Below are positions 36,694 through 62,107 of a stretch of 64,000 bases of DNA, one piece after another. The notes beneath the pieces were generated by a model that saw nothing but the letters and a program-made list of their open reading frames with translations, had not been told where the DNA came from and did not search any database. The stretch is taken from positions 509,429 to 573,428 of the forward strand of contig CP129476.1 of assembly GCA_030583805.1 (NCBI GenBank). Direction: 5' to 3'. Position 1 is the stretch's first letter. Each line of letters starts with the position of its first letter. A program made the position numbers and the translations under genes. Source of the DNA: Patescibacteria group bacterium. Lineage in GTDB: Bacteria > Patescibacteriota > Patescibacteriia > SG8-24 > DYFX01.

Positions 36694-36698
36694 TGAAA

Positions 36699-46401: not shown

Positions 46402-46758
46402 TTAGAAGACGTGCGACCAGAACACCAAAACGCCCACGAGGAGCGCGCCGACGGAACTCACGAGCACCGCGCCGGCCATCATATCCTTGATTTGCTCGGC
46501 ATAGGCGTGGATGCGCGGCTTGAACAGATCGACAAGCCGCTCGACGGCGCCGTTCAGTAATTCTAGCACGAGCGTCATGACAGCGACAACGACGAGAAGA
46601 GCCGTTTCGGCGCGCGAGAGGTTAAAGACGAAGATCAGCACGGTAAGCACGAGCGCGGCCAAGAGCTGGATCCGAAAACTCTGCTCTTCGCGCGCCAGCG
46701 TGACGATCCCCTTCACGGCAAAGCGCAGGCTGCGGAGAAAACGGCGCACGTCAAGCAT
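46402..46758 (-). CDS. dgkA: Diacylglycerol/undecaprenol kinase DgkA family
   Basis: ...RAETALLVVVAVMTLVLELLNGAVERLVD....AYAEQIKDMMAGAVLVSSVGALLVGVLVF. Three TM helices, 118 aa. It follows ybeY as in the Firmicute ybeY-dgkA arrangement. Confidence 0.8.
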   Translation of the reverse strand: MLDVRRFLRSLRFAVKGIVTLAREEQSFRIQLLAALVLTVLIFVFNLSRAETALLVVVAVMTLVLELLNGAVERLVDLFKPRIHAYAEQIKDMMAGAVLVSSVGALLVGVLVFWSHVF

Positions 46759-47173
46759 ATGTTTGCGATTTCAGGATCCTGCGTTGCAGCGCGAACATAA
46801 CCTTCTCATCCTTCAAAGTCTCGTGATCGTAGCCGAGAAGGTGCAGGACGCCGTGCACGAGCAAAAGCGCAAGTTCGGAACGAAGCGTTTTCTTGGCTTC
46901 TTTGGCCTGTTTTTCGGCCTGGGCGACCGAAATGACGATGTCCCCAAGCAAGCCGTGGGCTCCGTCCGCGAACGACAGGACGTCGGTCGTTTTTTTCTTG
47001 TTGCGGTGCACCGTGTTCAATTTCGTCATCTCGCGATCCGACACGAAAACGACGCCGACCTCCGTCGAAGCTGTTTTCTTGGCACCGCGCAAGGCGGCCG
47101 TCACCATTTTTTTGATCCACGCGTCGCTGACCGGCGCCTTGACGCGCCGCGCGACGGGAACGGAAACGGTCAT
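46751..47173 (-). CDS. ybeY: Endoribonuclease YbeY (rRNA maturation factor)
   Basis: HGVLHLLGYDHE is the His-triad motif. 140 aa. Confidence 0.95.
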   Translation of the reverse strand: MTVSVPVARRVKAPVSDAWIKKMVTAALRGAKKTASTEVGVVFVSDREMTKLNTVHRNKKKTTDVLSFADGAHGLLGDIVISVAQAEKQAKEAKKTLRSELALLLVHGVLHLLGYDHETLKDEKVMFALQRRILKSQTYA

Positions 47174-48168
47174 GGCTTCTTGCTGAAGCTGTTCATGAAC
47201 ATCACGAAGGTCGTGCGGAAGGCGTCTGGCCGAGACACGCTCTCCGTCCCGCCCTCCACCACACCCTGCGCATGCGCGAGCCGATATATCATTCCGTCAA
47301 GGCTCACGTACGCGCTCATGGCGTCTGAGGATCGAATGCCTTCAAGTCCGGATTTCGTCACGAACTGTTCAACTTGCGTCGGCGAGACCCCGGGGTTTCT
47401 CGTCAAATACCAGTCGAGAACCGATTGATTTCCAGGATTGTCTTCCCTTGCGATCTCGAAATAATCGTTCGCCGCAATCACGAAAACGTACGCATTTGAA
47501 AATTCTTGGAAGCTTCCGGCTTCCGGCGCCAAAACCGTGAAGGCGTCATCGGCAGCGACAAACTCGACAACCAGGTTCGCTTCTACAAGTTTCGTAGGCT
47601 TGAATCCCGTCGGATTGTAGAGATTCATCACCTCCAGACCGTCCGAATAGCCATCACCATCCGTGTCGCTGTTGAGCGGGCCGGTGCCATACAGCGTTTC
47701 CTCCGCATTGGTCAACCCGTCATTGTCCGGATCCAGCGCTTCATCGTTCTGCGGAGTAACCGCGGGGGGCTCAACCTCGGGTTCTGGCTGCGGTTCGGGT
47801 TGCGGCTCAGGCTGCGGCTCGGGCTGCGGTTCGGGTTGCGGCGTCGGCAGCGTCACGGACGGCGCAACAGGCTGCGGCGTCGCCGCCGGCCGCAAGAACC
47901 ACCAGATCGCAAAACCCATGCCCGCCAAAAGCACGACGGCAAAGATCGGTATCAGGAGCCACTTCTTACTCCCCTTCCCGTCGGCATGTTTCGTCGGCGG
48001 CGCAGACCCCGTCGCTGCAGGCGTCGGCGCGTTCGGCTGCGACGATGTAGGCGCTGGCGCCCCCTTCGGCAGCTGCGCCTTTGCCGCGACGCCGTAAAAC
48101 TGCTCCGGGATCGTATAGATGACCGGATCCTTCGGCGCGGCGGATTGCGGAACTGGCTGCTCGGGCAT
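47170..48168 (-). CDS. Single-pass membrane protein with a (PQPE)n low-complexity linker, thrombospondin type-3-like DxDxDG calcium-binding repeats and a C-terminal globular domain
   Basis: TM WLLIPIFAVVLLAGMGFAIWWFL. PQPEPQPEPQPEPQPEPQPEPEVEPP. DPDNDGLTNAEE / DTDGDGYSDGLE. 4-nt overlap with ybeY. Confidence 0.55.
   Translation of the reverse strand: MPEQPVPQSAAPKDPVIYTIPEQFYGVAAKAQLPKGAPAPTSSQPNAPTPAATGSAPPTKHADGKGSKKWLLIPIFAVVLLAGMGFAIWWFLRPAATPQPVAPSVTLPTPQPEPQPEPQPEPQPEPQPEPEVEPPAVTPQNDEALDPDNDGLTNAEETLYGTGPLNSDTDGDGYSDGLEVMNLYNPTGFKPTKLVEANLVVEFVAADDAFTVLAPEAGSFQEFSNAYVFVIAANDYFEIAREDNPGNQSVLDWYLTRNPGVSPTQVEQFVTKSGLEGIRSSDAMSAYVSLDGMIYRLAHAQGVVEGGTESVSRPDAFRTTFVMFMNSFSKKP
47784..47840. 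repeat. Tandem 12-nt repeat (ggctgcggttcg/ggttgcggctca variants) encoding (PQPE)n
   Basis: Seen in the sequence. A similar array occurs at ~48421..48510 in the paralogous downstream gene. Confidence 0.7.
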
Positions 48169-48180
48169 AACGGTCGGATG

Positions 48181-48789
48181 TTACGGCGCGGGCGGGATTT
48201 GCAGGAGCTTGCCCGGGCCCTTTGGATCGTAGCCGTTTCTTACTTCATCTCCGTCCGAGTACGTGTCGCCGTCCGTATCCGCGTTGACCGGGTCGGTGAC
48301 GTAGACCTCGACCTCTTCGCGATCCGACAGACCGTCGCCGTCGGTATCGACCATTCCGGCATTCGTTCCGATCTGGGCTTCGCGCGCATCATTCAACCCG
48401 TCGCCATCCGTATCGACTTCAGGTTCGGGCTGAGGTTGCGGTTCAGGCTGGGGCGGTTCCGGTTGCGGCTCTGGCTGCGGCGGTTCCGGTTGAGGTTGCG
48501 GCGCCGGTTCAGGCATCGGCACTCCGCTTTCCGGCACGGAAGGAGGCGTACCGCCACGCAAAGCGAAGTAGGCTGTTGCACTGCCGCCGATCAAGACAAC
48601 CGCAAGCACGGCGATCAGGATCCATTTGTGCCCGAGACTTGATTGTTCCAACGTCACGCCTGGCGCGGCCGTTACGGAAGGCGGCGCGGTCGGCAGTCCT
48701 TGCGGCGGCGAAGCCGGAGCTTTCTCCGAGGGAATTTCCGCGAAGATGTCGGCTGGTTCAGTTTTGTCGTCAAAGAGGAAGAAAATCAT
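48181..48789 (-). CDS. Paralogous single-pass membrane protein with (PQPE)n plus TSP3-like DTDGDGLSD repeats (202 aa)
   Basis: TM WILIAVLAVVLIGGSATAYFAL. PEPAPQPQPEPPQPEPQPEPPQPEPQPQPEPE. VDTDGDGLNDARE, VDTDGDGLSDREE, NADTDGDTYSDGDE. Confidence 0.55.
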   Translation of the reverse strand: MIFFLFDDKTEPADIFAEIPSEKAPASPPQGLPTAPPSVTAAPGVTLEQSSLGHKWILIAVLAVVLIGGSATAYFALRGGTPPSVPESGVPMPEPAPQPQPEPPQPEPQPEPPQPEPQPQPEPEVDTDGDGLNDAREAQIGTNAGMVDTDGDGLSDREEVEVYVTDPVNADTDGDTYSDGDEVRNGYDPKGPGKLLQIPPAP

Positions 48790-48795
48790 ACGCGT

Positions 48796-49272
48796 TTATT
48801 CTACACAAAAACTTGGTCGCTGTCCTGCGGCAGCCGCTTCCTGTTCACGTGCCGCGACCCAAGCTTTGTCCTGTGTTTTCCCGTCCGTCATCGTCTTGAG
48901 CGGATCCGTGCAGTACGTACGCACCTCTTCGAGATCGCTCAGGCCGTCCGCGTCCGTATCCTTGCGCGAAGGGTCGGTGCGCAAGGCGGCCTCCTCGCCA
49001 TCAGACAATCCGTCGGCGTCCGTATCGCGCAAGGCCGCGTCAGCAGTCACTGGCGGCGCGTCTTTTTCAGGCGGCACGATGCCTTGCGGCTTCGACGTCG
49101 AAGATGGCGAGCCTGGCGTGACGGGCCGTGTGCCCGCACCGCCAATCGGCGTCGTTCCATCCGACGCGGGCGGCGCGATACTGGCCGTGCGGGCGCGGCT
49201 GATGATCACGACGGTCGCGATGCCGGCAAGCAGCACCGCGACCACGCTCAGGATAATGACGAGTCGCTTCAT
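48796..49272 (-). CDS. Third paralog: single-pass membrane protein with TSP3-like DTDADGLSD repeats (158 aa)
   Basis: MKRLVIILSVVAVLLAGIATVVIIS. RDTDADGLSDGEEAALRTDPSRKDTDADGLSDLEE. Confidence 0.55.
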   Translation of the reverse strand: MKRLVIILSVVAVLLAGIATVVIISRARTASIAPPASDGTTPIGGAGTRPVTPGSPSSTSKPQGIVPPEKDAPPVTADAALRDTDADGLSDGEEAALRTDPSRKDTDADGLSDLEEVRTYCTDPLKTMTDGKTQDKAWVAAREQEAAAAGQRPSFCVE

Positions 49273-49273
49273 A

Positions 49274-52200
49274 TTAGTCGCTCGCGTTCGGACCGTCGGC
49301 CCTGTTTACGTACTTGTTTTTCATGGTGAAGCGTCCTTCCGGCGAAGCGGCCGTCTTGTCGATGCGTCCGATGTACCACATGCACGGATTGCCGGAGATA
49401 TCCGAGACGGACGAGAGCAGGCGCGTCGTGCCGCTCGTGACGCCGGAGACGCTCGCGTCCGATCCCGATTCGATCGTGAAGATGGAATTGCTCTTGATGG
49501 TCGCGCTGGCCGCCTTCCACCAACCGCTGTTGCGATTGAATTCAGGCATGTTGGCGTAGTTGCCGTCCACGAAACAGCTGCCGCCGTTCGCAAAGACGTG
49601 ATAGGTGCCTTGGGGCAACGACTGGGTTGAAAGCACCATGATCTCAGGATCCGTGGCGTGCGTGCCTCCCGTCACGTCCCAGAAGAGACGGATGTGGTCG
49701 GCCGCGAAGTTGCCGTTGCCGACGTAGCGCGTATCTGCAGCGCTCGCTTTCCAGCCGAAGTACTTGGTCTGCCCTGCGAGAGGCCCTGAACTGTAGACAG
49801 CCTTCACATAGAGGTCTACTTCGTTGGCGGCATTGTGAGGCGTCGGCCACGAGATCTTGAAGCGGAAGTCGCCGGGCAGGAGCGTACCGTTGTCGCAACC
49901 GCCGGTATAAAGGCCGCAACCCCTGGAGCACAGGACCTGACCGGCTGTGCCGGCACCCTGTGAAGCGCAGCTCGGTGCCGATCCACCAGCGAACGTGTTG
50001 TTATCGCAGACTTCACCGTAGGCCGAATGGATGATGCCGTCACCGCAATAGCCTCCGTTCGGATCGTAGACGCAGTCGTTGCGGCAGACGTAGGTCGTGC
50101 CTTGACCGCGTGCTTGCGGATCGCCCTGGCCATCGCACTGTTCGCCGAATTGCGTCTGTCTCACGCTGTCTCCGCAGAATGCGGGACTCTTGGCGTTCGT
50201 GCCGAAGCAGGCGTTCGAGCAGTAGTTGCAGGAGCCGTCCATGCGGTAGGCCACGCACGGGCCGTTCGCGCCGCATTCAGCGTCGTTCGTGCACAAGCGA
50301 CCGTTCACCTTGCACTTCCTGGCCGTCGCCGCCGCCTGCGTATTCGTGTAGGGCTCGGGCTGGCACTGCGTATTGAACGCGATGCATTGACCCTCGCCGC
50401 CTTGGCAATACTGGCCGGAGACGCAGTCGGAAGCGCTGCGGCACGGCGCACCTTCAGGCGCGCTCGTTCCCGTCCCCGTATACGGAGTGTATCCGGGGTC
50501 GAACGACGTGCCCGTATCGCCGATATCCACGCGCGGCGGACCACCGCCGGACGCCGTTGTAACGGTCAGGTTTTGATCGCGCGTCGACATGTTGCCGTTG
50601 CCGTCGAAGGCGTCGATCGAGATGACGTGAATGCCGGCCGAAAGCGCGCCGACGTTGACCGAGCAGGCTGCCGAAGCGAGACGCGGATTATAGCGGCAGG
50701 TCTGGCGCAGCACTTTGACGCCGGCTGTCGTGAGGTAGATATCGATGTTATCGACAAGTGCGGCGGCATCCGTCACGTCCGAGACCGTAATAACAACGCT
50801 GTCAGCCGTGTTCGGGCTCGTAGGCGCCGTGGTGATCGGACCGATGACGGGAGGCGTCGTGTCGCCGGGGACTCCGGCGTTGCATTCGCCGGGACCGCAG
50901 GTCGCGAACGTCGCGATCGTGCCAGCGAAACGAAGCGCGGCTTCGCCAAGAGGTCCGTACATCGGGATCGCGACGTCGGAGCGCGCAAACCTCTGCTTTG
51001 ACGGAGCAGCGGCCGAAGGCGTAGAAGCGCCCGGATAGTTGCGGCAAACGCCCGGCAAGCAGTCGTTGTTCGTCGTGCAGCCTTTGACTCCGCTCGTGTC
51101 CGCCGGGTTCTGGTAGGTGCGGCTGCACCAGGCCGTGACGGGACCAGGGTCGCACGTTTCCGGCGGCGCCGTAATCGTCCGGTCGCCGCAGAAGGCGCCG
51201 GAGATCGTTTCGATCGAGCAGTCGTTCTTGCAGTAGTTGCAGACGGAACCGTATTGCGGCGTGCAGAGGACGCCGTTGGCCGCGCCGTTGTCGCACTGTT
51301 CGACGCCGGAGCGCACGAAGCCGTCGTTGCAGACGTTCAGGCGGCAGGACGTGAGACATGCTCCGTTCGGCGAATTCGCCGCGCCGTCGTCGCACTGCTC
51401 CGCGCCTTCGATCACGCCGTTGCCGCACGCGCCTGACGGACGGCAGACGGACCAGTCGTTGAACGTGCAGGCTTCGCCGACCGGTTCGGTCGCGGGTTTG
51501 CAGCTCTTGGCGCGCGTTTGCGGGAGGCCGCCCGGCGTCACGGCGCACAACGCGCACGTTTCTCCGCTGGCGCAGTCCGAATTGCTTGAGCAAGAAGCGT
51601 AGTTGCTCGACGCGCCGTTCGTGTCAGCCAAGGAAGAGCCGCTCGGAATGCAGACGCCGGGTGCCGTCGCCTGATTGCCGTCGCATTCTTCATCGCCATT
51701 CGTCTCGCCGTCGCCGCACCGCGGGCCGGCGCCGCGGCAGTCCCAGGCGCAGAAGCCGTACTCGCCGTTGTTCGCGCCGTCATCGCAGGTTTCGCTGCCA
51801 TTCCTCACGCCATCGCCGCAGAAGTTCATGCGGTCGGTGCAGACCGAAGGGAACGGCAAGCCGGAGCAGTCAGAATTCGTGGCGCATGCCTGCGCGAGAT
51901 CGCAGCTGCCGTCGGCGCAGTTGCCGTCGAAAGCCGCGCGCTTCGTAATATTGACGCAGCGTTTCACGCAACCCAGGCTGCCGCTGCGGCAGCGTCCGTA
52001 CTGGCCGTTTTGCGCGCCGTCGTCGCAGCTTTCACCCGCGAAGGTTTCGAGCGATCCGTTACCACAAGCGGCCGGTCCTGGGCAGGCGGTTTGCACCTGC
52101 CATTCGCACGCGGCGTTGCAGCTTTCGAGCGATTGGCCTCCGCTGGCGCAAGCGACGTTGCGCGTCTGACCGATCTCGCAAGCTTCCGTGCCTTCAAGCA

Positions 52201-55200
52201 AGCCGTTGCCGCACGCGCCGCCGGCCGCCGGGCCGACGAGCGGTACGCCGATCGGCATGCAGACGTCCTGTACGGAGCACTCGGCGGACGCGGTGCAAGC
52301 GGCGCCGGTGGTGAGACACGCCTTCGGAGCCGTTGGCGAGGGCAGGCCGGCGCAGACCGGCGTGATCGAAATGCGCGTCGTGCAGTTTCCGGTCGTCGGA
52401 CCGGTCGGAATCCACGAGCAGCCGAGCGCGGCTTCGCAGCTGAAGAGCGAAGTTTTCGCGGCGCACGACGTGCCGAGCCATTGGTAGGTGACGTACTCGA
52501 AGTCGACCGACATGCGGTAATCAATGCCGCCGATCGAGCGGTACTGGTAGACGTGCGAATGCGCCGGGCAAGCGAATACACCGAGCGTATCGTTGTAGCA
52601 GGTTTCCGCTTCGAACGTCGGGCGGCAGACGTCGCCCGCGCCGCCCGCGCAGTCGCCATCGGCGGCGCATGCAGTGCGGCTGATGGAGCACTCCGAACCG
52701 AAGGCTTCACAGCGGTTGAACGCGTTGACCGGATCGACGACGGCTCCGGCCGCGCCGAGTTGCTGGCTCCAGGACGGCCACTTGGACGTGGTGAATCCGC
52801 GCACGAAGCTTCCGGACTCGACTTTCGGATAGAAGCCCGTCTGTTCGCGCGTCGTTTCCAGCGCGTTTTCGATGACGCGCATATCCTGCCAGCGGCGCAT
52901 GTCGCGGCGGATCTTGTCCTTGTCGGAATCGCAGCGCATGTCAGCCGGTCCTGCCGGAAGCGCGCGCACGCAATCGAGGTCGGTCGAGCACATGATCGGC
53001 GCCGTCGATTCCGCCGTCAGGTGGAGAATCTCCCCCGCCGCGTTCTTACAGACGTTGGTCACGCGATCCGAAGGCACGAGGTTGGTATTGAAATTGACGT
53101 TGCCGACCAGGCGGTTGAAGATTTCCGCCGTGCGAGGATCCGCATTGTCGTTGTACGCGAAGACGTAGATGTACGAGCGGATGTCCGGATCGCCGTATTT
53201 GTCGGCCGCGCCGACGTACACGGTGCGCTCGTCCTTGATCGCTTGGTAGCCGTCGACCGTCGCCGCTTCCGTCTTGCCGGAGAACCGCTGGGCGACGTAC
53301 CACTCTTGCGGCGTCAAACGATCGTAGTTCTCATACACGCGCATACCGATCGCGTCCGAAACCCGCCATTCCGGCTGGAAGCGGAAAAGCAGATCTTTCG
53401 AGCGGCAGGTGTCACCCGCGTTGCAATCGGCATTCGAAACGCACGCGCGCGGCTGCGAGAAGTCCGTCGTCGCGGCGCAGAAGCGCAGGAGACCCGAACC
53501 TCCGACCGACTGGCCCTGCACGGGTTGCGGCATGAGTTCCGGAAGCGACGTGCCGGCGTTGTCTCGGCAATAGTAGAACTCGAAGTGGGTCTGCGGATCG
53601 ACATACGGAGCCCAGGCGCCCGTCAAAATGTTGCGGCGCGGCCACGGCATCTGGCAGAGCATGATCGTGATCGAGGATTTGCCGATCTTGTCGCTGCCGG
53701 CGGTCGAAGGCGTGAGGGCGGTATCCGTTTGGATGCGCGCCGTCGCCGCGACTTGCTCCTGGCCGTTAATCCCCTTGGTGGCTTGCACGGTCGCGGAAGA
53801 AGCGCCCGCAGCCGCCGTCAAATCGAGGAGCGCGCCAACTGTCGCGTTTTCGGGAATCGTCGCCCAGCTCCACGTCCAGTCGTACACGCCGGGCACCGGC
53901 GCGATCGCCTCGAGGCGGCCGCCGCGGTCCGTCATGGCCGTCGCCGTGATCGTGAGCGGGATTGCGGAGTCTTGAATGAGCTCCGTGGCCGGCGTGGTTT
54001 GCACGACGTCGAAACGGCAGACGTCCGTGCCCGTCGTGAAGTCCTGGATCGTATCCACTGTTTCCGGATATCCGACGCCCTTCACCGTTTTCACGCCCGT
54101 CTGGCCGCCGCGCACCGTGACGCGGTACAGGCGCGACGAGCTCAGCATCTGCCTGGGCGCGAACGTCGAAAGCGTGCGAACCGTGCCATCGGGCGCGGTG
54201 ACGTTCGTGTGCGTGAAGGTGCCTTCAACCGGCGCGCAGATGTGCGATGCGGAAACTTCCAAGCCCACCAGCGAGCGGAAGAAGCGTCCGATCGATGAAG
54301 CCGCGCGCGCGAACCAGGAGCGCGGACCGTTTTCGTTATACGCATGGCTCGGGCAGGATTCGACGATGAGGCCGCCCTGGAGCGAGCCGGTATTCATCTC
54401 TTCGCCGAACTGCACGCTGATCTGCACGTTGCGGCATTCGTTGCCGCCCTTGGGATTGATGTCGGGAGCGTCGGGACGCGGGTAGCAGCAGGCGCCGGCG
54501 CCGCAAGAAAGGTTCGAACCGAAGGCCGAACAGTCGCTGTCGGCGCGGCAGGAACATTCGACGTTCACGCTGCCTTGTCCGGAGACGGTGCCGATTGCCG
54601 CCGTCACCGAGGCGTTGCAGTTGTTCCTGGCGTCGCACTGGTTGCGAGCCTCGACGACCTGCGTCGGATCGATGTTCGCATCGAGCGCCGGCGCTTCGCA
54701 TTCCTCACCGCCGCCGTTCTGAATGCCGGTCAACACGTCGGCGGGCTTCACGGTGACGACCGTGTCGCCGCAGAAGGCGCGGAGCTCCGGATCGGAACCC
54801 GTTTTGGTGCAGCGCGAGCTGCAGCCGGAAGACGGATCGCCGTTTTCAGCGGCGGCGTCGCAGTTCTCGCCCTTGGCCGGTTCGATCACACCGTTGCCGC
54901 AGCAGTTCGTACCCGCCGTGCAGGTTACCGGGTTTCCGCGCAAGAGACAGCTTTGGCCGCAAGCGAAATTCGGACGCGTCGGATTGCGCTCATCGGACGC
55001 GCCGAGCGCGACGGACGGACGTCCGGCGACCAGAATCTGCGTCGCGAGACCGCCCGCGCCGAGGATGTAATCGCATTGTTCTCCGGGTTCAAGCGCGCCG
55101 TTGCCGCAGACATAGACGTTCTGGCGGGAACCTTCAAGCAAGCAGCGCGAGCTGCAGCCGTCTCCACCTTCGCTGTTACCGTCATCGCACGCTTCGCCGA

Positions 55201-58200
55201 CGCCGGTTGAGGCGTTGCCGCAAGCCGAGAGGCCCGGCGTCGAACCGACGAGCAAGCAGGCGGTCGTGCAGCCTGCGGCCGCCGTGCCGTTGGCAGGACC
55301 CGCATCGCACTCTTCGCCGCGATCCGCCTGGATCGCGCCGTCGCCGCAGCCATTGGCAAGCGTATTGCCGGTCAACAAGCAATTGGCGTTGCAACCGTTC
55401 AAACCGGGCGTGTCGCAGGCTTCGCCGCGCTCGAGGGTGCCGTTGCCGCACGCGGGCGTACCCGGCGGCTGGCTTCCCGTCATGAGGCAGTTCGTCGAAC
55501 AGCCGGCCGGAAGGACGGGGTTGGTATTGATCAATGTTCCCGGCGGCACGTCGGGCAAGAACGAGAAGGCAACCGGCGCGGCCGGGTTCTGCGCCTTGCT
55601 CCAAGCCCAGTTATAGGAAGCCGCGCTCAGGATCTGGCCGCCCGCCGCGCACGCATCAGGAGAGCTGAGCGGGAGCGCGTTCACCGCCGAAACCTGGCCG
55701 ATGTAACGCAGCGTCGTCTGCGAGGGTTCCACAATGACGCGCTGCGGGCCGCACGGATCGCCGGTAAGGCGCGTGCGGAAAATCCAGCTGAAGGCGTTGC
55801 CTTCGTAGTTCAATCCCGTAAGCGGCGCCTGGCTCGTGCTCATAGCCGTGCCGAGAATGACCGCGCGGTACCAGGTATTGGCCGCCAGAACCGGATTGCC
55901 GAACGTCAGGAGGCGCGACGCCGCGGTGTAGCTCGGAGCAAGCGGCACTTCGCCCTCGAAGGCGAGGCACGATTCGTTGCGGCAGCGGTACAAGCGGACA
56001 TTCGAAAGGATGCTGCCCGGTCCGCTCTCGATCATCGGCGTGTTGAAGTACGCGAAGCTCACGGAGTTCACGCAGGCCTGATCGCAATCATGCGGCCCGT
56101 AGTCCACCACGCGCGGGTTGGCGTAGTCGATCGTCAGCGTGCCCGCATCGCTAAAACCGTCGACGGTCGAGCGGATCTGGATCGGCGGACCAGGGTCTGT
56201 TTCGGAAACCGGCGTCGCGACGGCTTCGCATTGGCGCGAGCCGCCGAGCGAGACGATCGTCGCTTTTCCGGGATCGGTCGAAACCCAGTTCACCGTGCGT
56301 CCGTCGCACGAAAGAATCACGCAGCGGCTTGAAAGCGGGAAGGCTTGGTAGTCTTTGGTTTCGTCGGCGGCGGAAATCAAGGCGTTGCCCGGCTGTACGT
56401 CGACGCCCGAGAGCGTGCAGGGGCCCGCGCCCGTCTTAAAGGACGTAACGTAGGCGCCGCCCGCACGGCTGTCGTAGTTGCCGTCGAGCGGTTGCGCGCC
56501 GCGCTCCGGCGTTCCCAAGCTTTGCACCTGGTCGCGGATCGTCAGGCGGTACCACGTGTCCGGCTGGAGGCCGTTCACGGGCAGTACGAGCTGCGAGCGG
56601 CCATCCGTGTCGTAATCGACGATCGAAGGCGCGCCGGCCGAAGCGACGGGCGTGCAGGTGTTGGAAATGGTGGCGCCAGTGCCGCAAGCTTCGAAAATGA
56701 CGTTGGAAGCGTTGATCGTGGCCGGATCCATCGGCAAGCTGAAGCGCGCCGTCATGGCGCCCATGTCGGTGCAGACGTCGGTCATGCCTTTGAACGGATT
56801 CGGGCTCGGCATCGCCGACGGCGGCGAGACTTGGCACGTCGCGTTCTCCATTACGATCGGGAAGATCGGAATCGGGCCGGTTGAAAATTGCCACGCGAAA
56901 CCGCCGGCAGCCGCGGGAGCGCCGCACGACGCGCGGCACGCGCCGTCATCGCAGCAGCTGCGTCCGCTGCCGCAAGAGGCGTCGCCACCGCTTTCACGGC
57001 AGTCGCGTACCTGGAAATTGACGCCGTTCGATTCAGCCGGCGTGGCGCCGACAAACGTGCGCACGCGCACGGGGCCGGTCGTCGCGCCATCCGGAACGGA
57101 AGCGGCGATCGACGAAGACTGCCACTGGCCGATCGAAGCGGCGTTCTGGTTCTCATTGAAACGGACGGCATCAGGATGCAGCGCCGTGAAGGCCGGGAGA
57201 TCGGCGGCGGAAATCGTGCCGAAGCCGTCGCCGTACAACGTAACCGACGTGCCGACCGGACCGTTGTCGGGGTCGACGCGGCAGAGGCCGGGCGTGAGCG
57301 GGTCGGTGTTGATCGTGAACGGCACGGCGTTCGAAGCGCGGCCGTCGGAACGCACGACCGTGACGTTGTAGGCGCCGAGCGCCACGGCAGTGTCAGCCGG
57401 TGTCGTGAAACGCGCCGGCACTTTGACGGTCACGCTGGCGTTCGTCCAATAGCCCGCCGCGCATTGCGCCGGGAAGCTGATGTCGCCAACCGCCTCGCCG
57501 GCGGCGTTCCGGAAACGCACCGTGCCTCCGGATCCGAAGTTGGAACCAAAGACCGAAAGATACGTGCCCACGGAACCGTCTTCAGGCGTGAGGTATTCGA
57601 TGCGCGGTTCCGTTCCGGCCTCGGGAGGCTCGACGCGGATGCATGCGGGGTTCGAAGGCTGGCCGCCGACCGTCACGCGCAACAAGAAATTCGAGCCGTC
57701 AAAGTCGGTTTCGACGTTCGGAATGGTCGGCGAGAACGAGGTTTCGCTCCACGGCGACACCTGCGAGGCCTCGGCAGCCGTCGCCCAGTCCTGGATTTGC
57801 GAGCAGTCCGAACCGGCGCGCGTGAGCTGCACGCGCGAATCGCCCTGTCCGCCGCCGAAGGCGACGCCCGTCACCGTGACGGTATTGCCGGTTTTGACCG
57901 AGGTCGGAGCGACCGAGCAAATACCCGGGCGCGCAACGTCGTTCACTTGGAAATCGGTGATGATCGGTCCGTAGGCGTCGTTGGTCGCGTCTTGGCGGCC
58001 GCCGGAAGCCGTGACGCGGATCGGTCCCGTGACCGCGCCTTGCGGCACGAGCACGACGATACGCGTATCGCTCCAAGCGTTGGCACATTGCGCAACGGTC
58101 GCATCCTGTTCATCCCCCGCCGCGGCCGTTCCCAAGAACGTGACGGTTCCCGCCGTCGAGCCGAAGCGGTCGCCCGTGATCGTCACGAGGTTGCCGGGAC

Positions 58201-59530
58201 GGCCGTCGCGCAACTGCACGTCGGTGATTTGAGGATTCTCGACGCACTGGCCGTTCTGGCAGAGGCCGGAAGCGCATTGGCCGTTCTGCGTGCAAGCGCC
58301 GCCGGTGCACGCGCCGCAGGAGCCTCCGCAATCGACGCCGACCTCGTCTCCGTCGCGCACGTTGTTGAAGCAGAACTGCGGACGCACCGTGACGCGCACC
58401 GCGCTTGAGCTCGCGTTGTCGCCGTCGATATTGAAAGCGCGCGCCGAAAGCGAAACGGTGCGAACCGGCACGAGTCCGGCCGTGTCCCACACCGCCTCGC
58501 TCGAGTAGGTTGAGGGCGCGATGTTTTGCGCATTGCCGTCCGCCGTGAAGAAGGCGCCGTCAGCCAAGTATTCGACGGAAGCGATGCCGGCCTCGTCGGT
58601 CGCGATCGCCTGGATCGGCACGAGATCGCCGGCCGGCACGGACTGTCCGTCGGTCGGGCTCGAAATCGTGATCGTCGGCGGTTCCGTCAGCACCGTGTCG
58701 CCCGTGCGGAAGCTCTGCGAGCAGGTCGCCCCGAGACCGCAGCTGATCGTGCGCGGATCCGATGTCGAGGCGTTGCGAAGGCCGGCGCTCACCGTGATTT
58801 GATAGTCGGAGTTCTGTTCGAGGCAGCGCCGGTCGGCGTTCGGAGCCGGGCACGGCGTAACTGGACGCAAGCGGATCGTGAAATTCTCGACGATCGGCTC
58901 GTAGTCGACGTTCGTGCGCGTCGTGCCTTCGACTTTTTCAAGACGAATGTTGGCGCGGATGTTCGTCGCGTCGTCGGTCGGCGCGGCGCTGAACGTGACC
59001 GCCGCCGTGACGTCGTATTTGGCGAGCGAACCTGCCGGCTGGATGGCCGTCGGGCGGAAAGCGCCTCCCGTACCGCCGCCGAATCCGCCGCCTCCCCCGC
59101 CTCCGCCACCGCCGCCTCCCCCGCCGGGGCCTCCGGTCGTCGCGGTGATGAGGGCGCTCAGGACGTAGGAAACGATAGCGAAAGCCGACATGATGATCAC
59201 GAGACCGATCACCGCGCCGGAGAGCGTCTTTTTCGCCCGTTCGATCTTGCTTTCATCCCCCGCCGCGGTCATCCAGGTGAAGCCCGCGTACAGGATGAGC
59301 ATGAGCGCAATCGTGCCGAGTAGGCCGAGGCCGACGCGGATGATGCGCGCGATCGTGATGCGGATGTCGGCCGTGCCGGTGCCGATTTCGGCGCCGATCT
59401 GTCCGGGCAGGAGTTCGTTCGACGTCACGCTTTGCGCAAGCGCCGCGTCATGAGACGCGAACCACAAGCACGGCGCGAGCAGCGCCAGCGCAATGATCCA
59501 TGATCGATGACGTCGGAAGAACGCGCACAT
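49274..59530 (-). CDS. Giant (3418-aa) cell-surface protein. It has an N-terminal signal plus VirB2/TrbC-pilin-like double-TM anchor, a poly-Gly linker, multiple IPT/TIG-like Ig-fold domains, many myxococcus-type Cys-rich repeats (CGDG...EECDDGN), an EGF-like Cys module and a C-terminal beta-rich domain.
   Basis: N-terminus ...AALAQSVTSNELLPGQIGAEIGTGTADIRITIARIIRVGLGLLGTIALMLILYAGFTWMTAAGDESKIERAKKTLSGAVIGLVIIMSAFAIVSYVL then GGPGGGGGGGGGGGGGGFGGGTGG. IPT-like PQITDVQLRDGRPGNLVTITGDRFGSTAGTVTF.... Cys repeats CGDGVRNGSETCDDGANNGEYGFC, CGDGETNGDEECDGN, CGNGVIEGAEQCDDGAANSPNGAC, etc. Uninterrupted 10.26-kb ORF. Confidence 0.85.
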   Translation of the reverse strand: MCAFFRRHRSWIIALALLAPCLWFASHDAALAQSVTSNELLPGQIGAEIGTGTADIRITIARIIRVGLGLLGTIALMLILYAGFTWMTAAGDESKIERAKKTLSGAVIGLVIIMSAFAIVSYVLSALITATTGGPGGGGGGGGGGGGGGFGGGTGGAFRPTAIQPAGSLAKYDVTAAVTFSAAPTDDATNIRANIRLEKVEGTTRTNVDYEPIVENFTIRLRPVTPCPAPNADRRCLEQNSDYQITVSAGLRNASTSDPRTISCGLGATCSQSFRTGDTVLTEPPTITISSPTDGQSVPAGDLVPIQAIATDEAGIASVEYLADGAFFTADGNAQNIAPSTYSSEAVWDTAGLVPVRTVSLSARAFNIDGDNASSSAVRVTVRPQFCFNNVRDGDEVGVDCGGSCGACTGGACTQNGQCASGLCQNGQCVENPQITDVQLRDGRPGNLVTITGDRFGSTAGTVTFLGTAAAGDEQDATVAQCANAWSDTRIVVLVPQGAVTGPIRVTASGGRQDATNDAYGPIITDFQVNDVARPGICSVAPTSVKTGNTVTVTGVAFGGGQGDSRVQLTRAGSDCSQIQDWATAAEASQVSPWSETSFSPTIPNVETDFDGSNFLLRVTVGGQPSNPACIRVEPPEAGTEPRIEYLTPEDGSVGTYLSVFGSNFGSGGTVRFRNAAGEAVGDISFPAQCAAGYWTNASVTVKVPARFTTPADTAVALGAYNVTVVRSDGRASNAVPFTINTDPLTPGLCRVDPDNGPVGTSVTLYGDGFGTISAADLPAFTALHPDAVRFNENQNAASIGQWQSSSIAASVPDGATTGPVRVRTFVGATPAESNGVNFQVRDCRESGGDASCGSGRSCCDDGACRASCGAPAAAGGFAWQFSTGPIPIFPIVMENATCQVSPPSAMPSPNPFKGMTDVCTDMGAMTARFSLPMDPATINASNVIFEACGTGATISNTCTPVASAGAPSIVDYDTDGRSQLVLPVNGLQPDTWYRLTIRDQVQSLGTPERGAQPLDGNYDSRAGGAYVTSFKTGAGPCTLSGVDVQPGNALISAADETKDYQAFPLSSRCVILSCDGRTVNWVSTDPGKATIVSLGGSRQCEAVATPVSETDPGPPIQIRSTVDGFSDAGTLTIDYANPRVVDYGPHDCDQACVNSVSFAYFNTPMIESGPGSILSNVRLYRCRNESCLAFEGEVPLAPSYTAASRLLTFGNPVLAANTWYRAVILGTAMSTSQAPLTGLNYEGNAFSWIFRTRLTGDPCGPQRVIVEPSQTTLRYIGQVSAVNALPLSSPDACAAGGQILSAASYNWAWSKAQNPAAPVAFSFLPDVPPGTLINTNPVLPAGCSTNCLMTGSQPPGTPACGNGTLERGEACDTPGLNGCNANCLLTGNTLANGCGDGAIQADRGEECDAGPANGTAAAGCTTACLLVGSTPGLSACGNASTGVGEACDDGNSEGGDGCSSRCLLEGSRQNVYVCGNGALEPGEQCDYILGAGGLATQILVAGRPSVALGASDERNPTRPNFACGQSCLLRGNPVTCTAGTNCCGNGVIEPAKGENCDAAAENGDPSSGCSSRCTKTGSDPELRAFCGDTVVTVKPADVLTGIQNGGGEECEAPALDANIDPTQVVEARNQCDARNNCNASVTAAIGTVSGQGSVNVECSCRADSDCSAFGSNLSCGAGACCYPRPDAPDINPKGGNECRNVQISVQFGEEMNTGSLQGGLIVESCPSHAYNENGPRSWFARAASSIGRFFRSLVGLEVSASHICAPVEGTFTHTNVTAPDGTVRTLSTFAPRQMLSSSRLYRVTVRGGQTGVKTVKGVGYPETVDTIQDFTTGTDVCRFDVVQTTPATELIQDSAIPLTITATAMTDRGGRLEAIAPVPGVYDWTWSWATIPENATVGALLDLTAAAGASSATVQATKGINGQEQVAATARIQTDTALTPSTAGSDKIGKSSITIMLCQMPWPRRNILTGAWAPYVDPQTHFEFYYCRDNAGTSLPELMPQPVQGQSVGGSGLLRFCAATTDFSQPRACVSNADCNAGDTCRSKDLLFRFQPEWRVSDAIGMRVYENYDRLTPQEWYVAQRFSGKTEAATVDGYQAIKDERTVYVGAADKYGDPDIRSYIYVFAYNDNADPRTAEIFNRLVGNVNFNTNLVPSDRVTNVCKNAAGEILHLTAESTAPIMCSTDLDCVRALPAGPADMRCDSDKDKIRRDMRRWQDMRVIENALETTREQTGFYPKVESGSFVRGFTTSKWPSWSQQLGAAGAVVDPVNAFNRCEAFGSECSISRTACAADGDCAGGAGDVCRPTFEAETCYNDTLGVFACPAHSHVYQYRSIGGIDYRMSVDFEYVTYQWLGTSCAAKTSLFSCEAALGCSWIPTGPTTGNCTTRISITPVCAGLPSPTAPKACLTTGAACTASAECSVQDVCMPIGVPLVGPAAGGACGNGLLEGTEACEIGQTRNVACASGGQSLESCNAACEWQVQTACPGPAACGNGSLETFAGESCDDGAQNGQYGRCRSGSLGCVKRCVNITKRAAFDGNCADGSCDLAQACATNSDCSGLPFPSVCTDRMNFCGDGVRNGSETCDDGANNGEYGFCAWDCRGAGPRCGDGETNGDEECDGNQATAPGVCIPSGSSLADTNGASSNYASCSSNSDCASGETCALCAVTPGGLPQTRAKSCKPATEPVGEACTFNDWSVCRPSGACGNGVIEGAEQCDDGAANSPNGACLTSCRLNVCNDGFVRSGVEQCDNGAANGVLCTPQYGSVCNYCKNDCSIETISGAFCGDRTITAPPETCDPGPVTAWCSRTYQNPADTSGVKGCTTNNDCLPGVCRNYPGASTPSAAAPSKQRFARSDVAIPMYGPLGEAALRFAGTIATFATCGPGECNAGVPGDTTPPVIGPITTAPTSPNTADSVVITVSDVTDAAALVDNIDIYLTTAGVKVLRQTCRYNPRLASAACSVNVGALSAGIHVISIDAFDGNGNMSTRDQNLTVTTASGGGPPRVDIGDTGTSFDPGYTPYTGTGTSAPEGAPCRSASDCVSGQYCQGGEGQCIAFNTQCQPEPYTNTQAAATARKCKVNGRLCTNDAECGANGPCVAYRMDGSCNYCSNACFGTNAKSPAFCGDSVRQTQFGEQCDGQGDPQARGQGTTYVCRNDCVYDPNGGYCGDGIIHSAYGEVCDNNTFAGGSAPSCASQGAGTAGQVLCSRGCGLYTGGCDNGTLLPGDFRFKISWPTPHNAANEVDLYVKAVYSSGPLAGQTKYFGWKASAADTRYVGNGNFAADHIRLFWDVTGGTHATDPEIMVLSTQSLPQGTYHVFANGGSCFVDGNYANMPEFNRNSGWWKAASATIKSNSIFTIESGSDASVSGVTSGTTRLLSSVSDISGNPCMWYIGRIDKTAASPEGRFTMKNKYVNRADGPNASD
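59068..59135. repeat. GC-only simple repeat (ggc/ggg/gga codon run on the coding strand) encoding the poly-Gly linker of the giant protein
   Basis: Plus-strand ccgccgccgaatccgccgcctcccccgcctccgccaccgccgcctcccccgccggggcctcc. It is a homopolymeric-codon tract prone to slippage. Confidence 0.7.
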
Positions 59531-59533
59531 AGG

Positions 59534-61321
59534 TTATGGGAGGAAACCGCAGGCGACCTGCGAGGGTACGCCGTTGCAGCAGAACGCTTCGTTTCCGGTG
59601 CAGACCGTTTGGCCCGCGCCCGGATAGAAGCAGTTCTGACGCAAGTCGCGCAGGCCCGAAGTCAGGCTGAGCGCGTACGGCTGGTTGATCGACAAGAGAT
59701 CGTGGTCGATGATGCCTTTCGTCTGGTCCGGATCGCCGCCGGCGACCGAAGAAACCGACTCGGTCGCGAGCGAGAAGTTGGTCGGAGCGCCGTTCGCGCC
59801 GGGCACGAGCTTCGCGTTATCGCTCGTGAAGCTCGCCGAGCTCATGAGCTTCGAGAACGTCACGGACATCGGCAGATCGCGGGCGATCGAGCCCTGCAGC
59901 ACCGCCGGTTCGTGCGAAACCACGACAGGCGGCACGAGATCGATTTCGTTGGAGGTGCGGAAGTCGTAGTCGTAGTCGTCGTCCGGAGAACCTTGCGCCG
60001 CGCCGTTGCCGTTGCCGTCGAGCGAATTGCCCGCCATGTCGGTGATGCCGTTCGGAGGATAGATGCCGAGCGGCGGCGCGGCCGTGAGCGCGTCGGCGCG
60101 GACGCTGACGTTGATCTGCTGGTTGGCCGGGAGACAGAAGACCTGCTCGCCGCACGAGTTCGTGCCGCACGATTCGTCCGTGCGGAATTCGACGGTGCGG
60201 TAGGCGTTGCCGATTTGCTCCCGGCCCGCGACGACGTTGCCGCCCGACCGCGTGATGGAGAAGCCGGAGCCGACGCTGACCGGATCGATCGCTTCATTGA
60301 ACGTGACGTGGACGAGCGAGTTGCGCGGAACGCCGCTCGCGCCGTCGGCCGGCACGACGTACGAAACCTGGGGCGGCGTAAGATCGAGTACGGTCGACAC
60401 TTGGAACTCCCAGAGATAGCCGGAGTTGAACGTGCCGGTGAAGGCCGGAGCACCCCCGTCGCGCCGCACGCCGTCGGTGCCGCCGCGAAGCGCGATCGTA
60501 TAGAAGACGTTTTCCGTCGGGCTGCCGAAGCAGTTTGCCGGACAGTTGCGCTGCAGGAACGTGAAGCTGCGGCCGTCGGCCGAAACGGCGACGTCGATGT
60601 CCGCGGCCGTCAGGCTCTGGGCGAATTTCTGAGGGAATTGATTCGAAGCCGCGCCCACGTCGACCGATTTCAAGATGGCGACCGTGGCATTGGCTCCGCC
60701 CACGACGATCGAGGCGGGATCGATGCGCTGCTTGAAAGTCACGACAACGCGCGTGTTGCGCGCGACGCCGGTGGCGTTGCGATTCGGGTAGTGGCTTTCG
60801 ATGATGCCGTTGCCCAAGGCGCCCGCCGGACACGTCGCGGAAAGGCCGATGCAGGCGATATCGTTCGGCGCGCTGGAACCGCCGCCCGTGCCTCCCCCGC
60901 CGAGCGCGCCGCCCTCGCCGAGCAGCCTGCTGATGACGAACGAGGTGATGGCGAACGCCGACAGCATAATCACGAGGCCGATCACGGCGGACGTCAGGAT
61001 TTTCTTGGCGCGATCGACCTTCTCGGGATCGCCGGCAGCCGTCATCCAAATGAAGCCGGCGTACAAGACGAGGAGAAGCGCGATCGTGCCGAGGAAACCG
61101 AAGAATGCGCGAATGATGCGCGCGATCGTGATGCGGATGTCGCCCGTGCCGGTGCCGATGACTTCGCCGATCTCGGTCGGCAGCACTTCATTCGACGTGA
61201 CGCCTTGCGCCTGCGCGACATGCGCGAATGCGTAAGACGCAAAAACCACCAACACGAAACTGGCGACCGTGAAGGTGGCTTTGACGAGCGTTTGGGAGAG
61301 TGACTTCCTTCCTGAGAGCAT
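59534..61321 (-). CDS. 595-aa surface protein sharing the VirB2/TrbC-pilin-like N-terminal anchor and Gly linker with the giant gene, then Ig-like/BIG-like beta domains and a Cys-rich C-terminus
   Basis: ...AQAQGVTSNEVLPTEIGEVIGTGTGDIRITIARIIRAFFGFLGTIALLLVLYAGFIWMTAAGDPEKVDRAKKILTSAVIGLVIMLSAFAITSFVISRLLGEGGALGGGGTGGG.... A stretch of ~60 nt is nearly identical to the giant gene (gatgcgcgcgatcgtgatgcggatgtcg.ccgtgccggtgccgat). Confidence 0.8.
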   Translation of the reverse strand: MLSGRKSLSQTLVKATFTVASFVLVVFASYAFAHVAQAQGVTSNEVLPTEIGEVIGTGTGDIRITIARIIRAFFGFLGTIALLLVLYAGFIWMTAAGDPEKVDRAKKILTSAVIGLVIMLSAFAITSFVISRLLGEGGALGGGGTGGGSSAPNDIACIGLSATCPAGALGNGIIESHYPNRNATGVARNTRVVVTFKQRIDPASIVVGGANATVAILKSVDVGAASNQFPQKFAQSLTAADIDVAVSADGRSFTFLQRNCPANCFGSPTENVFYTIALRGGTDGVRRDGGAPAFTGTFNSGYLWEFQVSTVLDLTPPQVSYVVPADGASGVPRNSLVHVTFNEAIDPVSVGSGFSITRSGGNVVAGREQIGNAYRTVEFRTDESCGTNSCGEQVFCLPANQQINVSVRADALTAAPPLGIYPPNGITDMAGNSLDGNGNGAAQGSPDDDYDYDFRTSNEIDLVPPVVVSHEPAVLQGSIARDLPMSVTFSKLMSSASFTSDNAKLVPGANGAPTNFSLATESVSSVAGGDPDQTKGIIDHDLLSINQPYALSLTSGLRDLRQNCFYPGAGQTVCTGNEAFCCNGVPSQVACGFLP

Positions 61322-61348
61322 GGGACAGGAGGGTAGGGTTTCCCGGAA

Positions 61349-61804
61349 CTACGCTTTGTTTTGCAAGAACTCTTTGACCTTTTTGCCGACCAGGCCGCCG
61401 TCGGCCTTTCCCTTCAATTCTTTCATCATTTCGCCCATAAGGCGACCGAACGCGGCTTCGCCGGAGAGTCCGAGCTCGGTGGCTTTTTTGACCACGGCGG
61501 CTTGAACGTCTTCTTCGGAAAGCTGCGCAGGGAGAAACGTTTCGAGGAGCGCGAGTTCGGACTGCGTCGATTCGGCCAAGTCCTTGCGATCGGCCTTCTC
61601 GAAATCCGAGAGGGCATCGCGCAATTTTTTGACTTCGCGTCCGATGACTTCGATCGCCTCGTCATCGCTCAGCTCTTTCACTTGCTTGTCGATCTCGGCA
61701 TTTTTCATGGCCGAGCGGAGCATGCGAAACGCGGATACGGCCGGGGCGTCCTTGGCCTTCATCGCTTCGACGAACCGCTTTTCGATGTCGCTTCTGAGAG
61801 ACAT
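61349..61804 (-). CDS. GatB/YqeY-domain protein
   Basis: MSLRSDIEKRFVEAMKAKDAPAVSAFRMLRSAMKNAEIDK...LSDDEAIEVIGREVKKLRDALSDFEKADRKDLAES...LLETFLPAQLSEEDVQAAV.... Canonical YqeY. It directly follows rpsU as in Bacillus rpsU-yqeY. Confidence 0.9.
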   Translation of the reverse strand: MSLRSDIEKRFVEAMKAKDAPAVSAFRMLRSAMKNAEIDKQVKELSDDEAIEVIGREVKKLRDALSDFEKADRKDLAESTQSELALLETFLPAQLSEEDVQAAVVKKATELGLSGEAAFGRLMGEMMKELKGKADGGLVGKKVKEFLQNKA

Positions 61805-61807
61805 AGC

Positions 61808-62059
61808 TTAACGATGAGTACGTTTCTTGGCGCGGAGGTCTTCTTCTTTCAGCTTGCCGCTTTTGAGCAGATACTCGCGGCGGGCGGCCAGGAACTGGCG
61901 GCGGAGCGCGGCGTCGCGCTGGCCGTTCTTGTTCTTTTCAGCCGTGTGAAAACGGGTTTTCTTGGCTTGCAGAACGCGGCCGGACTGCTGAATGCGGCGG
62001 CTGAAACGACGAAGCAGAGCTTCAAAGCTCTCTCCCTTTTTGCGTTTGACTTCAACCAC
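61808..62059 (-). CDS. rpsU: 30S ribosomal protein S21 (GTG start)
   Basis: MVEVKRKKGESFEALLRRFSRRIQQSGRVLQAKKTRFHTAEKNKNGQRDAALRR.... AAGGAAGG SD is 8 nt upstream of the GTG. Confidence 0.85.
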   Translation of the reverse strand: MVEVKRKKGESFEALLRRFSRRIQQSGRVLQAKKTRFHTAEKNKNGQRDAALRRQFLAARREYLLKSGKLKEEDLRAKKRTHR

Positions 62060-62090: not shown

Positions 62091-62107
62091 GTGAGACCGG
62101 GTCTCAC
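62091..62107. promoter_or_regulatory. Perfect 17-bp palindrome gtgagacc-g-ggtctcac about 32 nt upstream of the rpsU start, in the 5' leader/promoter of the long rpsU...pyk operon; candidate operator or leader hairpin
   Basis: Seen in the sequence. Its function is inferred only. Confidence 0.3.

Follow-up and report, generated by a model that had tools for sequence, protein, structure and literature searches.

How does a set of genes for large surface proteins come to stand in the middle of a housekeeping gene array, and is it a newcomer there or an old resident? The question is raised by a 64,000-nt stretch of DNA ("the window", numbered from its first letter) from a Patescibacteria group bacterium (GenBank assembly GCA_030583805.1, contig CP129476.1, positions 509,429 to 573,428), in which the gene pairs rpsU-yqeY and ybeY-dgkA are separated by five genes encoding putative envelope proteins. 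A first-pass annotation, made from the sequence alone, described this arrangement as a conserved housekeeping neighbourhood split by the insertion of a surface-protein locus. The comparison reported here leads to a different reading: the five genes probably constitute an ancient, vertically inherited module embedded in an operon, gained once between yqeY and ybeY near the base of the clade that carries it. Most bacteria of the candidate phyla radiation (CPR), to which the Patescibacteria belong, remain uncultured, and little is known about their envelope or about the machinery with which they attach and divide. The locus offers a compact, clade-wide set of five candidate envelope genes at a fixed position, and the conservation of its junction with essential genes suggests coupled expression. 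An insertion claimed for a single genome is ordinary; the value of the finding lies in the comparative pattern.

The five-gene module and its setting

All genes of the array lie on the minus strand. They were called from a table of open reading frames (ORFs) verified by Pfam and NCBIfam profile searches, greedy calling of the longest ORF having been dropped since antisense ORFs are misleading in DNA with 62% guanine plus cytosine (GC). The array begins with rpsU (61808-62059), which encodes a divergent bS21 of 83 residues with a GTG start, followed after 3 nt by yqeY (61349-61804), encoding a GatB/YqeY-domain protein of 151 residues (PF09424, 138.6 bits). RpsU was recognised by its S21 profile and by a position that is kept in relatives; its scores fall below the cut-offs (Pfam S21 23.7 bits, gathering threshold 27; TIGR00030 25.1, threshold 28.95), and the homologs found at the same position in relatives are likewise weak S21 matches.

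Exactly five genes then separate yqeY from ybeY. The first, p595 (59534-61321, 595 aa), starts 27 nt after yqeY and matches T4SS_pilin (36.0 bits, gathering threshold 26.6) and Big_5 (73.1 bits). After a gap of 3 nt comes p3418 (49274-59530), which codes for a giant putative surface protein of 3418 aa with matches to T4SS_pilin (31.5 bits, same threshold), Big_7, TIG and Big_5. Three genes for membrane proteins with TSP3 repeats complete the module, all of them above the TSP3_bac threshold of 25 bits: tsp158 (48796-49272, 43.6 bits; an N-terminal signal-anchor and repeats), tsp202 (48181-48789, 59.8 bits; bitopic) and tsp332 (47170-48168, 35.7 bits; bitopic, with a PsbP/Mog1-like C-terminal domain), placed at successive gaps of 1, 6 and 12 nt. 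The last overlaps by 4 nt with ybeY (46751-47173), the gene of an rRNA maturation RNase (PF02130, 129.8 bits; TIGR00043, 135.6 bits), which itself overlaps by 8 nt with dgkA (46402-46758; prokaryotic diacylglycerol kinase family, PF01219, 99.7 bits). Another 8 nt lead to ftsA (45137-46393), and a 106-nt spacer to ftsZ (43759-45030), both identified with Pfam. The module takes up the 14,175 nt that separate the stop codon of yqeY from the start codon of ybeY.

Distribution among Patescibacteria

The host FtsZ is 81% identical to that of the Patescibacteria metagenome-assembled genome H41-bin254_1 (JBBTWH010000033) and ~60-64% identical to those of Uhr-, Magasanik-, Falkow- and Buchananbacteria, while YqeY homologs at 97-49% identity all come from Patescibacteria or from metagenomes without a name. 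Judged by these best matches, the host belongs to the Patescibacteria (CPR) and, within them, to the clade that comprises Uhr-, Magasanik-, Falkow-, Buchanan-, Komeili-, Kerfeld- and Jacksonbacteria, and the "CPR-like" ancestry guessed at first pass was correct. In GTDB this module-bearing clade would correspond to the class ABY1.

The window proteins were mapped by tblastn onto the loci of the 80 best FtsZ matches among GTDB species representatives (loci are given L numbers below). In 50 of the 80 loci, a tsp332-type gene immediately precedes ybeY/dgkA and itself follows TSP3 genes and a giant gene; L023 also turned out to bear the module on inspection. The same order is seen in all five relatives anchored on YqeY (85% to 49% identity) and in both genomes anchored on p595 (37-38% identity). 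The outcome that the first-pass annotation had named as refuting its claim, surface genes present in all related genomes, is thus what is seen within the clade. Because the order recurs in dozens of independent genomes, it is not a product of chance. The closed chromosome OY970181.1 (L168 and L025) carries it complete from lepB to pyk, with 14.26 kb between yqeY and ybeY vs 14.18 kb here; L031, L101 and L153 have the whole array with shorter "giants" and modules of 6.7-9 kb. Upstream, the context in the module clade reads lepB-hisS-(variable slot)-rpsU-yqeY-p59x-giant, and it is kept down to 49% identity in YqeY and 37% in p595. Starting from an alignment of the tsp332 family, a scan of metagenomes added 31 loci with a match that takes in the C-terminal domain, and ybeY follows immediately in 24 of the 28 with enough downstream sequence.

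A second arrangement, in which rpsU-yqeY leads directly to ybeY and/or ftsA-ftsZ, is present in 11 of the 80 loci. In L070, yqeY (3405-3899), ybeY (3935-4375) and ftsA (from 4407) leave no space for an extra gene, and L077 is built likewise; L072, which belongs to the same group, reads hisS-rpsU-ybeY-dgkA-ftsA, the hisS-rpsU link being thus found on both sides. None of these 11 direct-type loci yielded a detectable homolog of the module proteins tsp332, tsp202, p595 and p3418. Coming from other CPR lineages, they uphold the earlier suggestion that rpsU-yqeY and ybeY(-dgkA) are old linked neighbours, since the two are directly contiguous there and are followed by ftsA-ftsZ. The remaining loci are cut by contig ends (12/80) or otherwise arranged (7/80).

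A midpoint-rooted neighbour-joining tree of FtsZ keeps the two arrangements apart: one side holds every locus with the module (Uhr, Magasanik, Falkow, Buchanan, Kerfeld, Komeili, Jackson, the window and L001), the opposite side every locus of the direct type (Saccharimonadia, Doudnabacteria and others). With the flanks contiguous in outgroup CPR and the module nearly universal in its own clade, the data point to an old inherited arrangement rather than to a recent insertion. The presence or absence of the module between yqeY and ybeY also provides a simple synteny marker to tell the Uhr/Magasanik/Falkow-type clade from Saccharimonadia-type CPR.

Age and origin of the module

Could a ~14-kb surface-protein island nevertheless have been inserted recently, by horizontal transfer, into this genome or its close relatives? 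Such an event would agree with a module GC above that of the flanks (0.60-0.65 vs 0.56-0.62) and with the IS200/Y1 transposase gene that lies ~900 nt upstream of rpsU. The GC excess sits, however, in codon position 2 (0.47-0.57 vs 0.33-0.45) and is due to proteins rich in Gly, Ala, Pro and Thr, not to a foreign origin. Relative synonymous codon usage of the module correlates at r = 0.969 with the flanking housekeeping genes and at 0.968 with the other genes of the window (flanks vs other window genes, 0.959), as compared with 0.59-0.66 against host genes for an atypical low-GC stretch at 10.7-17 kb; the foreign signature that a codon-usage comparison was meant to reveal is absent. The transposase gene stands outside the module, beyond a terminator hairpin and in a slot whose content varies among relatives, and relatives whose proteins are as little as 37-49% identical, as well as many named candidate phyla, share the same genes in the same order. 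A recent arrival is thus very improbable. What survives of the "insertion" is its relative sense: the five genes are inserted with respect to the contiguous rpsU-yqeY-ybeY of the 11 direct-type loci, and the event was neither recent nor specific to this genome.

The opposite possibility is that the module was ancestral to a much larger part of the CPR, and that the contiguous state of Saccharimonadia, Doudnabacteria and others results from its deletion during genome reduction. The midpoint-rooted FtsZ tree, which separates the two states reciprocally, gives no polarity alone, and VirB2-like pilin genes are widespread in CPR (10.1101/2025.01.22.634366). Yet the direct-type loci contain no detectable homolog of p595, p3418, tsp202 or tsp332, and the full-length tsp332-family matches of the metagenome scan all stand in module context. 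Firmicute outgroups have other genes, such as phoH (next to yqeY in Listeria; PMC4424878), at the site and are not known to have such a module. Exact loss of five genes, restoring a tight yqeY-ybeY junction in several lineages, would moreover be less parsimonious than one gain. Secondary loss on this scale is accordingly considered unlikely, and a single gain near the base of the clade is preferred.

The yqeY/ybeY junction itself may be prone to repeated insertion in CPR. In lineages that lack the module, a reverse transcriptase gene (RVT_1) occupies the position just upstream of ybeY in L057 (499-1491), a gene for a PolB-exonuclease-like protein does so in L052 (6846-7631), and an ORF of 310 aa without annotation lies between yqeY and ybeY in L039 (6051-6983).

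Junctions and transcription signals

Is the module transcribed together with its neighbours? From rpsU to ftsA the genes are co-directional, with short or overlapping junctions and no intrinsic terminators between them, a scan of the intergenic gaps having found no terminator-like site in any of them. Owing to this short spacing and to the lack of terminator-like sites, co-transcription of the module with the rpsU...ftsA unit is plausible. The best evidence available for a shared transcript of the last module gene and ybeY would be the conservation of their junction: among the 77 tsp332-family ORFs found over all loci, 67 have ybeY as the next gene. In 62 of these the two genes overlap or lie no more than 30 nt apart, and in 13 the overlap is exactly 4 nt, a signature of translational coupling.

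It is also possible, though we hold it to be the less probable course, that the neighbourhood is conserved while the module and ybeY-dgkA-ftsA-ftsZ have separate promoters, their adjacency being kept by inertia in a compact genome. CPR genomes are generally compact and co-directional, and small gaps are common in them. Promoter-like sites at 48798-48826, 46560-46589 (within dgkA, ahead of ftsA) and 45113-45140 would suit separate transcription, as would a hairpin in the ftsA-ftsZ spacer and a yqeY-to-p595 gap that measures anything between 22 and 141 nt in relatives. Promoter-like matches nonetheless occur at chance frequency, and the tight tsp332/ybeY junctions, maintained across deep divergence, leave no room for a non-coding promoter; the absence of terminator-like sites between rpsU and ftsA also speaks for a common transcript. 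Separate promoters would in any case be partly compatible with an ancient, vertically inherited module.

At the upstream border, a hairpin resembling an intrinsic terminator (62147-62170, minus strand; A-tract, 7-bp GC-rich stem, U-tract) ends the preceding unit (orf149/IS200) before rpsU. It was recognised by sequence reading and folding, the automated scan not having listed it; its stem grows to 12 bp in the fold through flanking A-U pairs, and the 126-nt region that holds it has a minimum free energy of -40.7 kcal/mol (z -4.2). Direct reading then suggests a weak sigma-70-like promoter candidate, TTGACC-17 nt-TACTGT (62112-62140, minus strand). Scan and folding also place a leader hairpin ~30 nt ahead of the GTG start, downstream of this candidate and upstream of a ribosome-binding site (GGAAGG). 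It has a perfect 7-bp stem followed by TATTTTT (62091-62107, minus strand) and might act in attenuation or in stabilising the 5′ end. An Rfam search at gathering thresholds found no RNA family within the block, the rpsU leader included, and only a tmRNA and one tRNA elsewhere in the window.

Downstream of ftsZ the same strand continues with nrdR (43298-43762), htrA (42059-43288), pyk (40619-42055) and a HAMP-HisKA-HATPase histidine kinase gene (HK, 39448-40641), all identified with Pfam. Here ftsZ/nrdR overlap by 4 nt, nrdR and htrA are 9 nt apart, htrA and pyk 3 nt, and pyk/HK overlap by 23 nt; the order nrdR-htrA-pyk(-HK) is also that of L001, L023, L025, L034 and L113. The whole co-directional block (39448-62059) measures 22.6 kb. 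On these points the first-pass annotation was accurate: the gene identities and the shared orientation, from rpsU-yqeY over the five surface genes and ybeY-dgkA to the kinase, are as it gave them, the 22-kb block on one strand is real, and so are the 4-nt overlaps, which concern tsp332/ybeY and ftsZ/nrdR. In the ftsA-ftsZ spacer, a terminator-like hairpin with a T-run (45087-45101, minus strand) and a promoter-like site (45113-45140, minus strand), both simple consensus matches, would make a possible point of attenuation or re-initiation. A bidirectional terminator-like hairpin (39424-39440, minus strand), found by the scan right after the kinase stop, closes the block.

Predicted hairpin-anchored surface proteins

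The first two module genes encode proteins of a common design. p595 is made of a signal peptide, a VirB2-like two-helix membrane hairpin, a Gly-rich linker, three immunoglobulin (Ig)-like domains and a Cys-rich tail, and it scores 40.1 bits against NF045849 (cut-off 40). In an AlphaFold2 model (mean predicted local distance difference test score, 77.4), the two helices span residues 62-93 and 99-136, and the three Ig-like domains are modelled confidently. Foldseek matches are tandem Ig-like arrays, including domains A/B of LdtMt2 and the surface-layer (S-layer) proteins SbsC and Sap; these generic matches have low TM-scores and do not identify a function. Across the clade the family is conserved in size (544-637 aa) and retains 37-40% identity.

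The N-terminal anchors of p3418 and p595 are paralogous, at 68% identity, and share a signal peptide, a pair of long hydrophobic helices with the short basic loop WMTAAGDxxKxxRAKK between them, and a Gly-rich linker. In p3418 the anchor is followed by a run of ~15 Gly; the protein contains 5.2% Cys and ends in Cys-rich repeats, and no Pfam domain was matched beyond residue ~1000. It can be aligned with its relatives only in its central part (~residues 650-2900), at 24-32% identity. Orthologs at the matching position count 3420, 3185, 3177, 3380, 3243 and 3169 aa, and the giant protein ranges from about 1500 to 3420 aa across loci.

Both proteins exceed the gathering threshold of the pilin profile PF18895 (T4SS_pilin), but neither is a small stand-alone pilin subunit of ~70-130 aa, the hairpin being the N-terminal ~135 aa of proteins of 595 and 3418 aa. 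No Pfam match to virB4, virB6 or virD4 was obtained among the window ORFs scanned, which comprised part of the small ones, nor are these genes listed for the loci of seven relatives, each taken with 10 kb on either side. The sequence features thus fit a hairpin that is most likely a membrane anchor and not a polymerising pilin: a pilin-type hairpin would have been reused to hold giant Ig-like proteins in the membrane.

Bitopic TSP3 proteins and their cytosolic motifs

The TSP3 proteins are single-pass and carry a Lys/Arg-rich stretch before the transmembrane helix, which points to an N-in, C-out topology. Their membership in PF18884 is supported by scores above the cut-off together with Ca-binding motifs of the form DxDxDGxxDxxE, such as DTDGDGLSDREE and DTDADGLSDGEE. 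In tsp202, a cytosolic N-terminus with a DIFAE motif precedes the helix, a PEPQ-rich spacer and the Ca-binding repeats. In tsp332, a cytosolic IYTIPEQFYG motif, the helix, a PEPQ-rich spacer and the repeats are followed by a C-terminal domain that matches, in structure, alpha-beta sandwiches of the PsbP/Mog1/DcrB/LpqN type. A full-library phmmer search with this domain returned 180 representative clusters, nearly all of 300-480 aa with the domain at the C-terminus. A word-indexed tsp332 search was saturated by low-complexity words and reached relatives of at least ~40% identity; deeper family members were drawn from the loci. Residues D146, D148, D150, D168, D170 and D172 are invariant in the family.

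The most conserved parts of these two bitopic proteins are their short cytosolic N-terminal motifs, which alone are deeply conserved. Within IYTIPEQFYG, I17, P21 and Y25 are invariant in the close tsp332 family, and [TV][MI]Pxx[FYL] occurs in 66 of 72 tsp332-type N-termini clade-wide (1.5 expected in shuffled sequences). Among 62 tsp202-type N-termini, 51 have MF[DE] at the start and 49 have (E/D)D[IM]F, with fewer than 0.3 expected in shuffles. Conservation of this kind suggests a cytoplasmic partner that is itself conserved.

Identification of the TSP3 proteins as CglD, MtsD, GltJ, ClfB or TonB was considered and rejected: NCBIfam scores amount to 16-33 bits against cut-offs of 179-3000, and only TSP3 or Pro-rich repeats are common to them.

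A working model and the points against it

Taken together, these observations may be read as follows. The ancestral CPR array would have been hisS-rpsU-yqeY-ybeY-(dgkA)-ftsA-ftsZ, and the envelope module would have become established in the yqeY-ybeY interval at, or close to, the base of the clade, to be inherited vertically from then on. Its two surface proteins (~600 aa and 1500-3400 aa), anchored by paralogous hairpins, would display Ig-like, Cys-rich ectodomains by means of a Gly-rich tether. They would be accompanied by two to three bitopic N-in/C-out proteins, in which a cytosolic motif and a transmembrane helix are followed by a spacer rich in Pro and by Ca-binding TSP3 repeats; the last of these proteins has a PsbP/Mog1-like end. 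Since the gaps of the module do not exceed 27 nt and its last gene appears translationally coupled to ybeY, the module would most likely be expressed from the rpsU promoter region, along with the ribosome-maturation genes and ftsA, with internal promoters probably added. Production of a lineage-specific surface structure could in this way be tied to growth and division.

Several points weigh against this picture. A 10-kb gene placed ahead of the essential ybeY, ftsA and ftsZ would give strong polarity, which makes internal promoters likely and means that the block may not be one operon. The promoter candidate in front of rpsU matches the -10 consensus at 3/6 positions and lies below the threshold of the scanner, and the region contains about as many promoter-like matches as chance alone would give (4 vs 3.4 expected). 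Gain rather than loss is deduced from a midpoint-rooted tree of a single gene, built by neighbour joining, and from outgroup reasoning, and Paceibacteria, Microgenomatia and Gracilibacteria are scarce or absent in the 80-locus FtsZ sample. The array is secondarily broken in some Falkowbacteria/Komeilibacteria (L014, L020, L059, L112): in L014 and L112, ~6.5 kb of genes for multi-pass membrane proteins separate the tsp332-type gene from ftsA, and ybeY is missing from the site, while no module is detectable in the ~8.7 kb upstream of ftsA in L059. Finally, the regular expressions used to count the cytosolic motifs are post hoc, having been defined after inspection of the sequences.

A bolder proposal, distinctly unlikely in our judgement, is that the module connects the envelope to the divisome. 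The cytosolic motifs of the TSP3 proteins would dock on FtsA/FtsZ or on another cytoplasmic machine, while the TSP3 and PsbP-like ectodomains would organise p595 and the giant protein into a CPR surface layer or attachment organelle. If this were true, surface assembly would be positioned and timed by cell division, and one would understand why these genes have stayed upstream of ftsA-ftsZ, between yqeY and ybeY, throughout the history of the clade.

Other features of the window

The slot between hisS and rpsU has a variable content. In the window (62462-63525) it contains the IS200/Y1 transposase gene (62962-63525) and an ORF of 149 aa without annotation. Among relatives, Y1_Tnp occupies it in the one whose YqeY is 85% identical, and others have DUF4153, or SocA_Panacea with an N_methyl prepilin gene; the slot corresponds to 8260-8814 in L081, 8113-9621 in L083 and 7055-8937 in L168.

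Far from the module, smpB (9781-10233, plus strand) is directly followed by the tmRNA gene (10269-10671, 76 bits). After it, up to 17326, comes a stretch of minus-strand ORFs with low GC (0.49-0.54 vs 0.60-0.66 elsewhere), including a sigma-70 region 4 protein (10740-11771) and a C-5 cytosine DNA methylase (14800-15783). It looks like a genomic island or a defence/prophage remnant integrated at ssrA. The overall GC of the window, ~0.60-0.66, is unusually high among CPR genomes. Also encoded are a second HtrA-like protease (6772-7890), a CHASE2-adenylate/guanylate cyclase (21504-23435) and a PAS histidine kinase (36693-37859).

Comparison with known systems

How does the locus compare with what has been described elsewhere? 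The literature consulted yielded no description of the surface-gene cluster, and a CPR protein-family paper does not mention ftsA and ftsZ. In other CPR classes, unlike in the window, the rpsU-yqeY and ybeY pairs are directly contiguous. Bacillus has phoH-(pgpH)-ybeY-dgkA-...-era, with yqeZ-yqfABCD-phoH between the two pairs. The likeness to this Firmicute neighbourhood consists in adjacent rpsU-yqeY (3-nt gap here), adjacent ybeY-dgkA (8-nt overlap here) and their common orientation; the differences are that tsp332 stands upstream of ybeY, ftsA downstream of dgkA, and a CPR-specific surface module between the pairs, and profile searches found no match to PhoH or Era in the block. The order rsmE-rpsU-yqeY-phoH is documented for Listeria (PMC4424878), which supports the rpsU-yqeY part of the conserved Firmicute neighbourhood invoked at first pass, the rest of the Bacillus order being general background.

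The anchors of p595 and p3418 resemble VirB2/TrbC-like pilins of type IV secretion systems (PF18895/PF04956) in their signal peptide, two-helix hydrophobic hairpin and short basic cytosolic loop. The CPR study of these secretion systems treats PF18895 matches as small pilins near virB4 (10.1101/2025.01.22.634366), whereas here the hairpin accounts for no more than the first ~130 aa of large Ig-like proteins without secretion-system neighbours. With the S-layer or adhesin proteins SbsC and Bacillus anthracis Sap, the shared trait is the array of Ig-like domains (Foldseek E ~1e-8 to 1e-5), but the TM-scores, normalised to the query, are 0.1-0.16, and SLH or other known anchoring domains are missing here. 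The likeness to CglD and MtsD of Myxococcus is confined to the TSP3 repeat (NCBIfam 20-33 bits vs cut-offs of 400-800).

The closest architectural parallel for tsp202 and tsp332 may be sought among the bitopic divisome proteins of the FtsN/ZipA type in Proteobacteria. No match to a SPOR domain or to FtsN was found for the TSP3 proteins in Pfam or NCBIfam, and their ectodomains differ, being made of TSP3 repeats and a PsbP/Mog1-like fold. tsp202 and tsp332 nevertheless consist of a short conserved cytosolic peptide, one transmembrane helix, a Pro/Gln-rich spacer and an ectodomain, and their genes lie near ftsA-ftsZ, which recalls FtsN as an analogy of architecture only.

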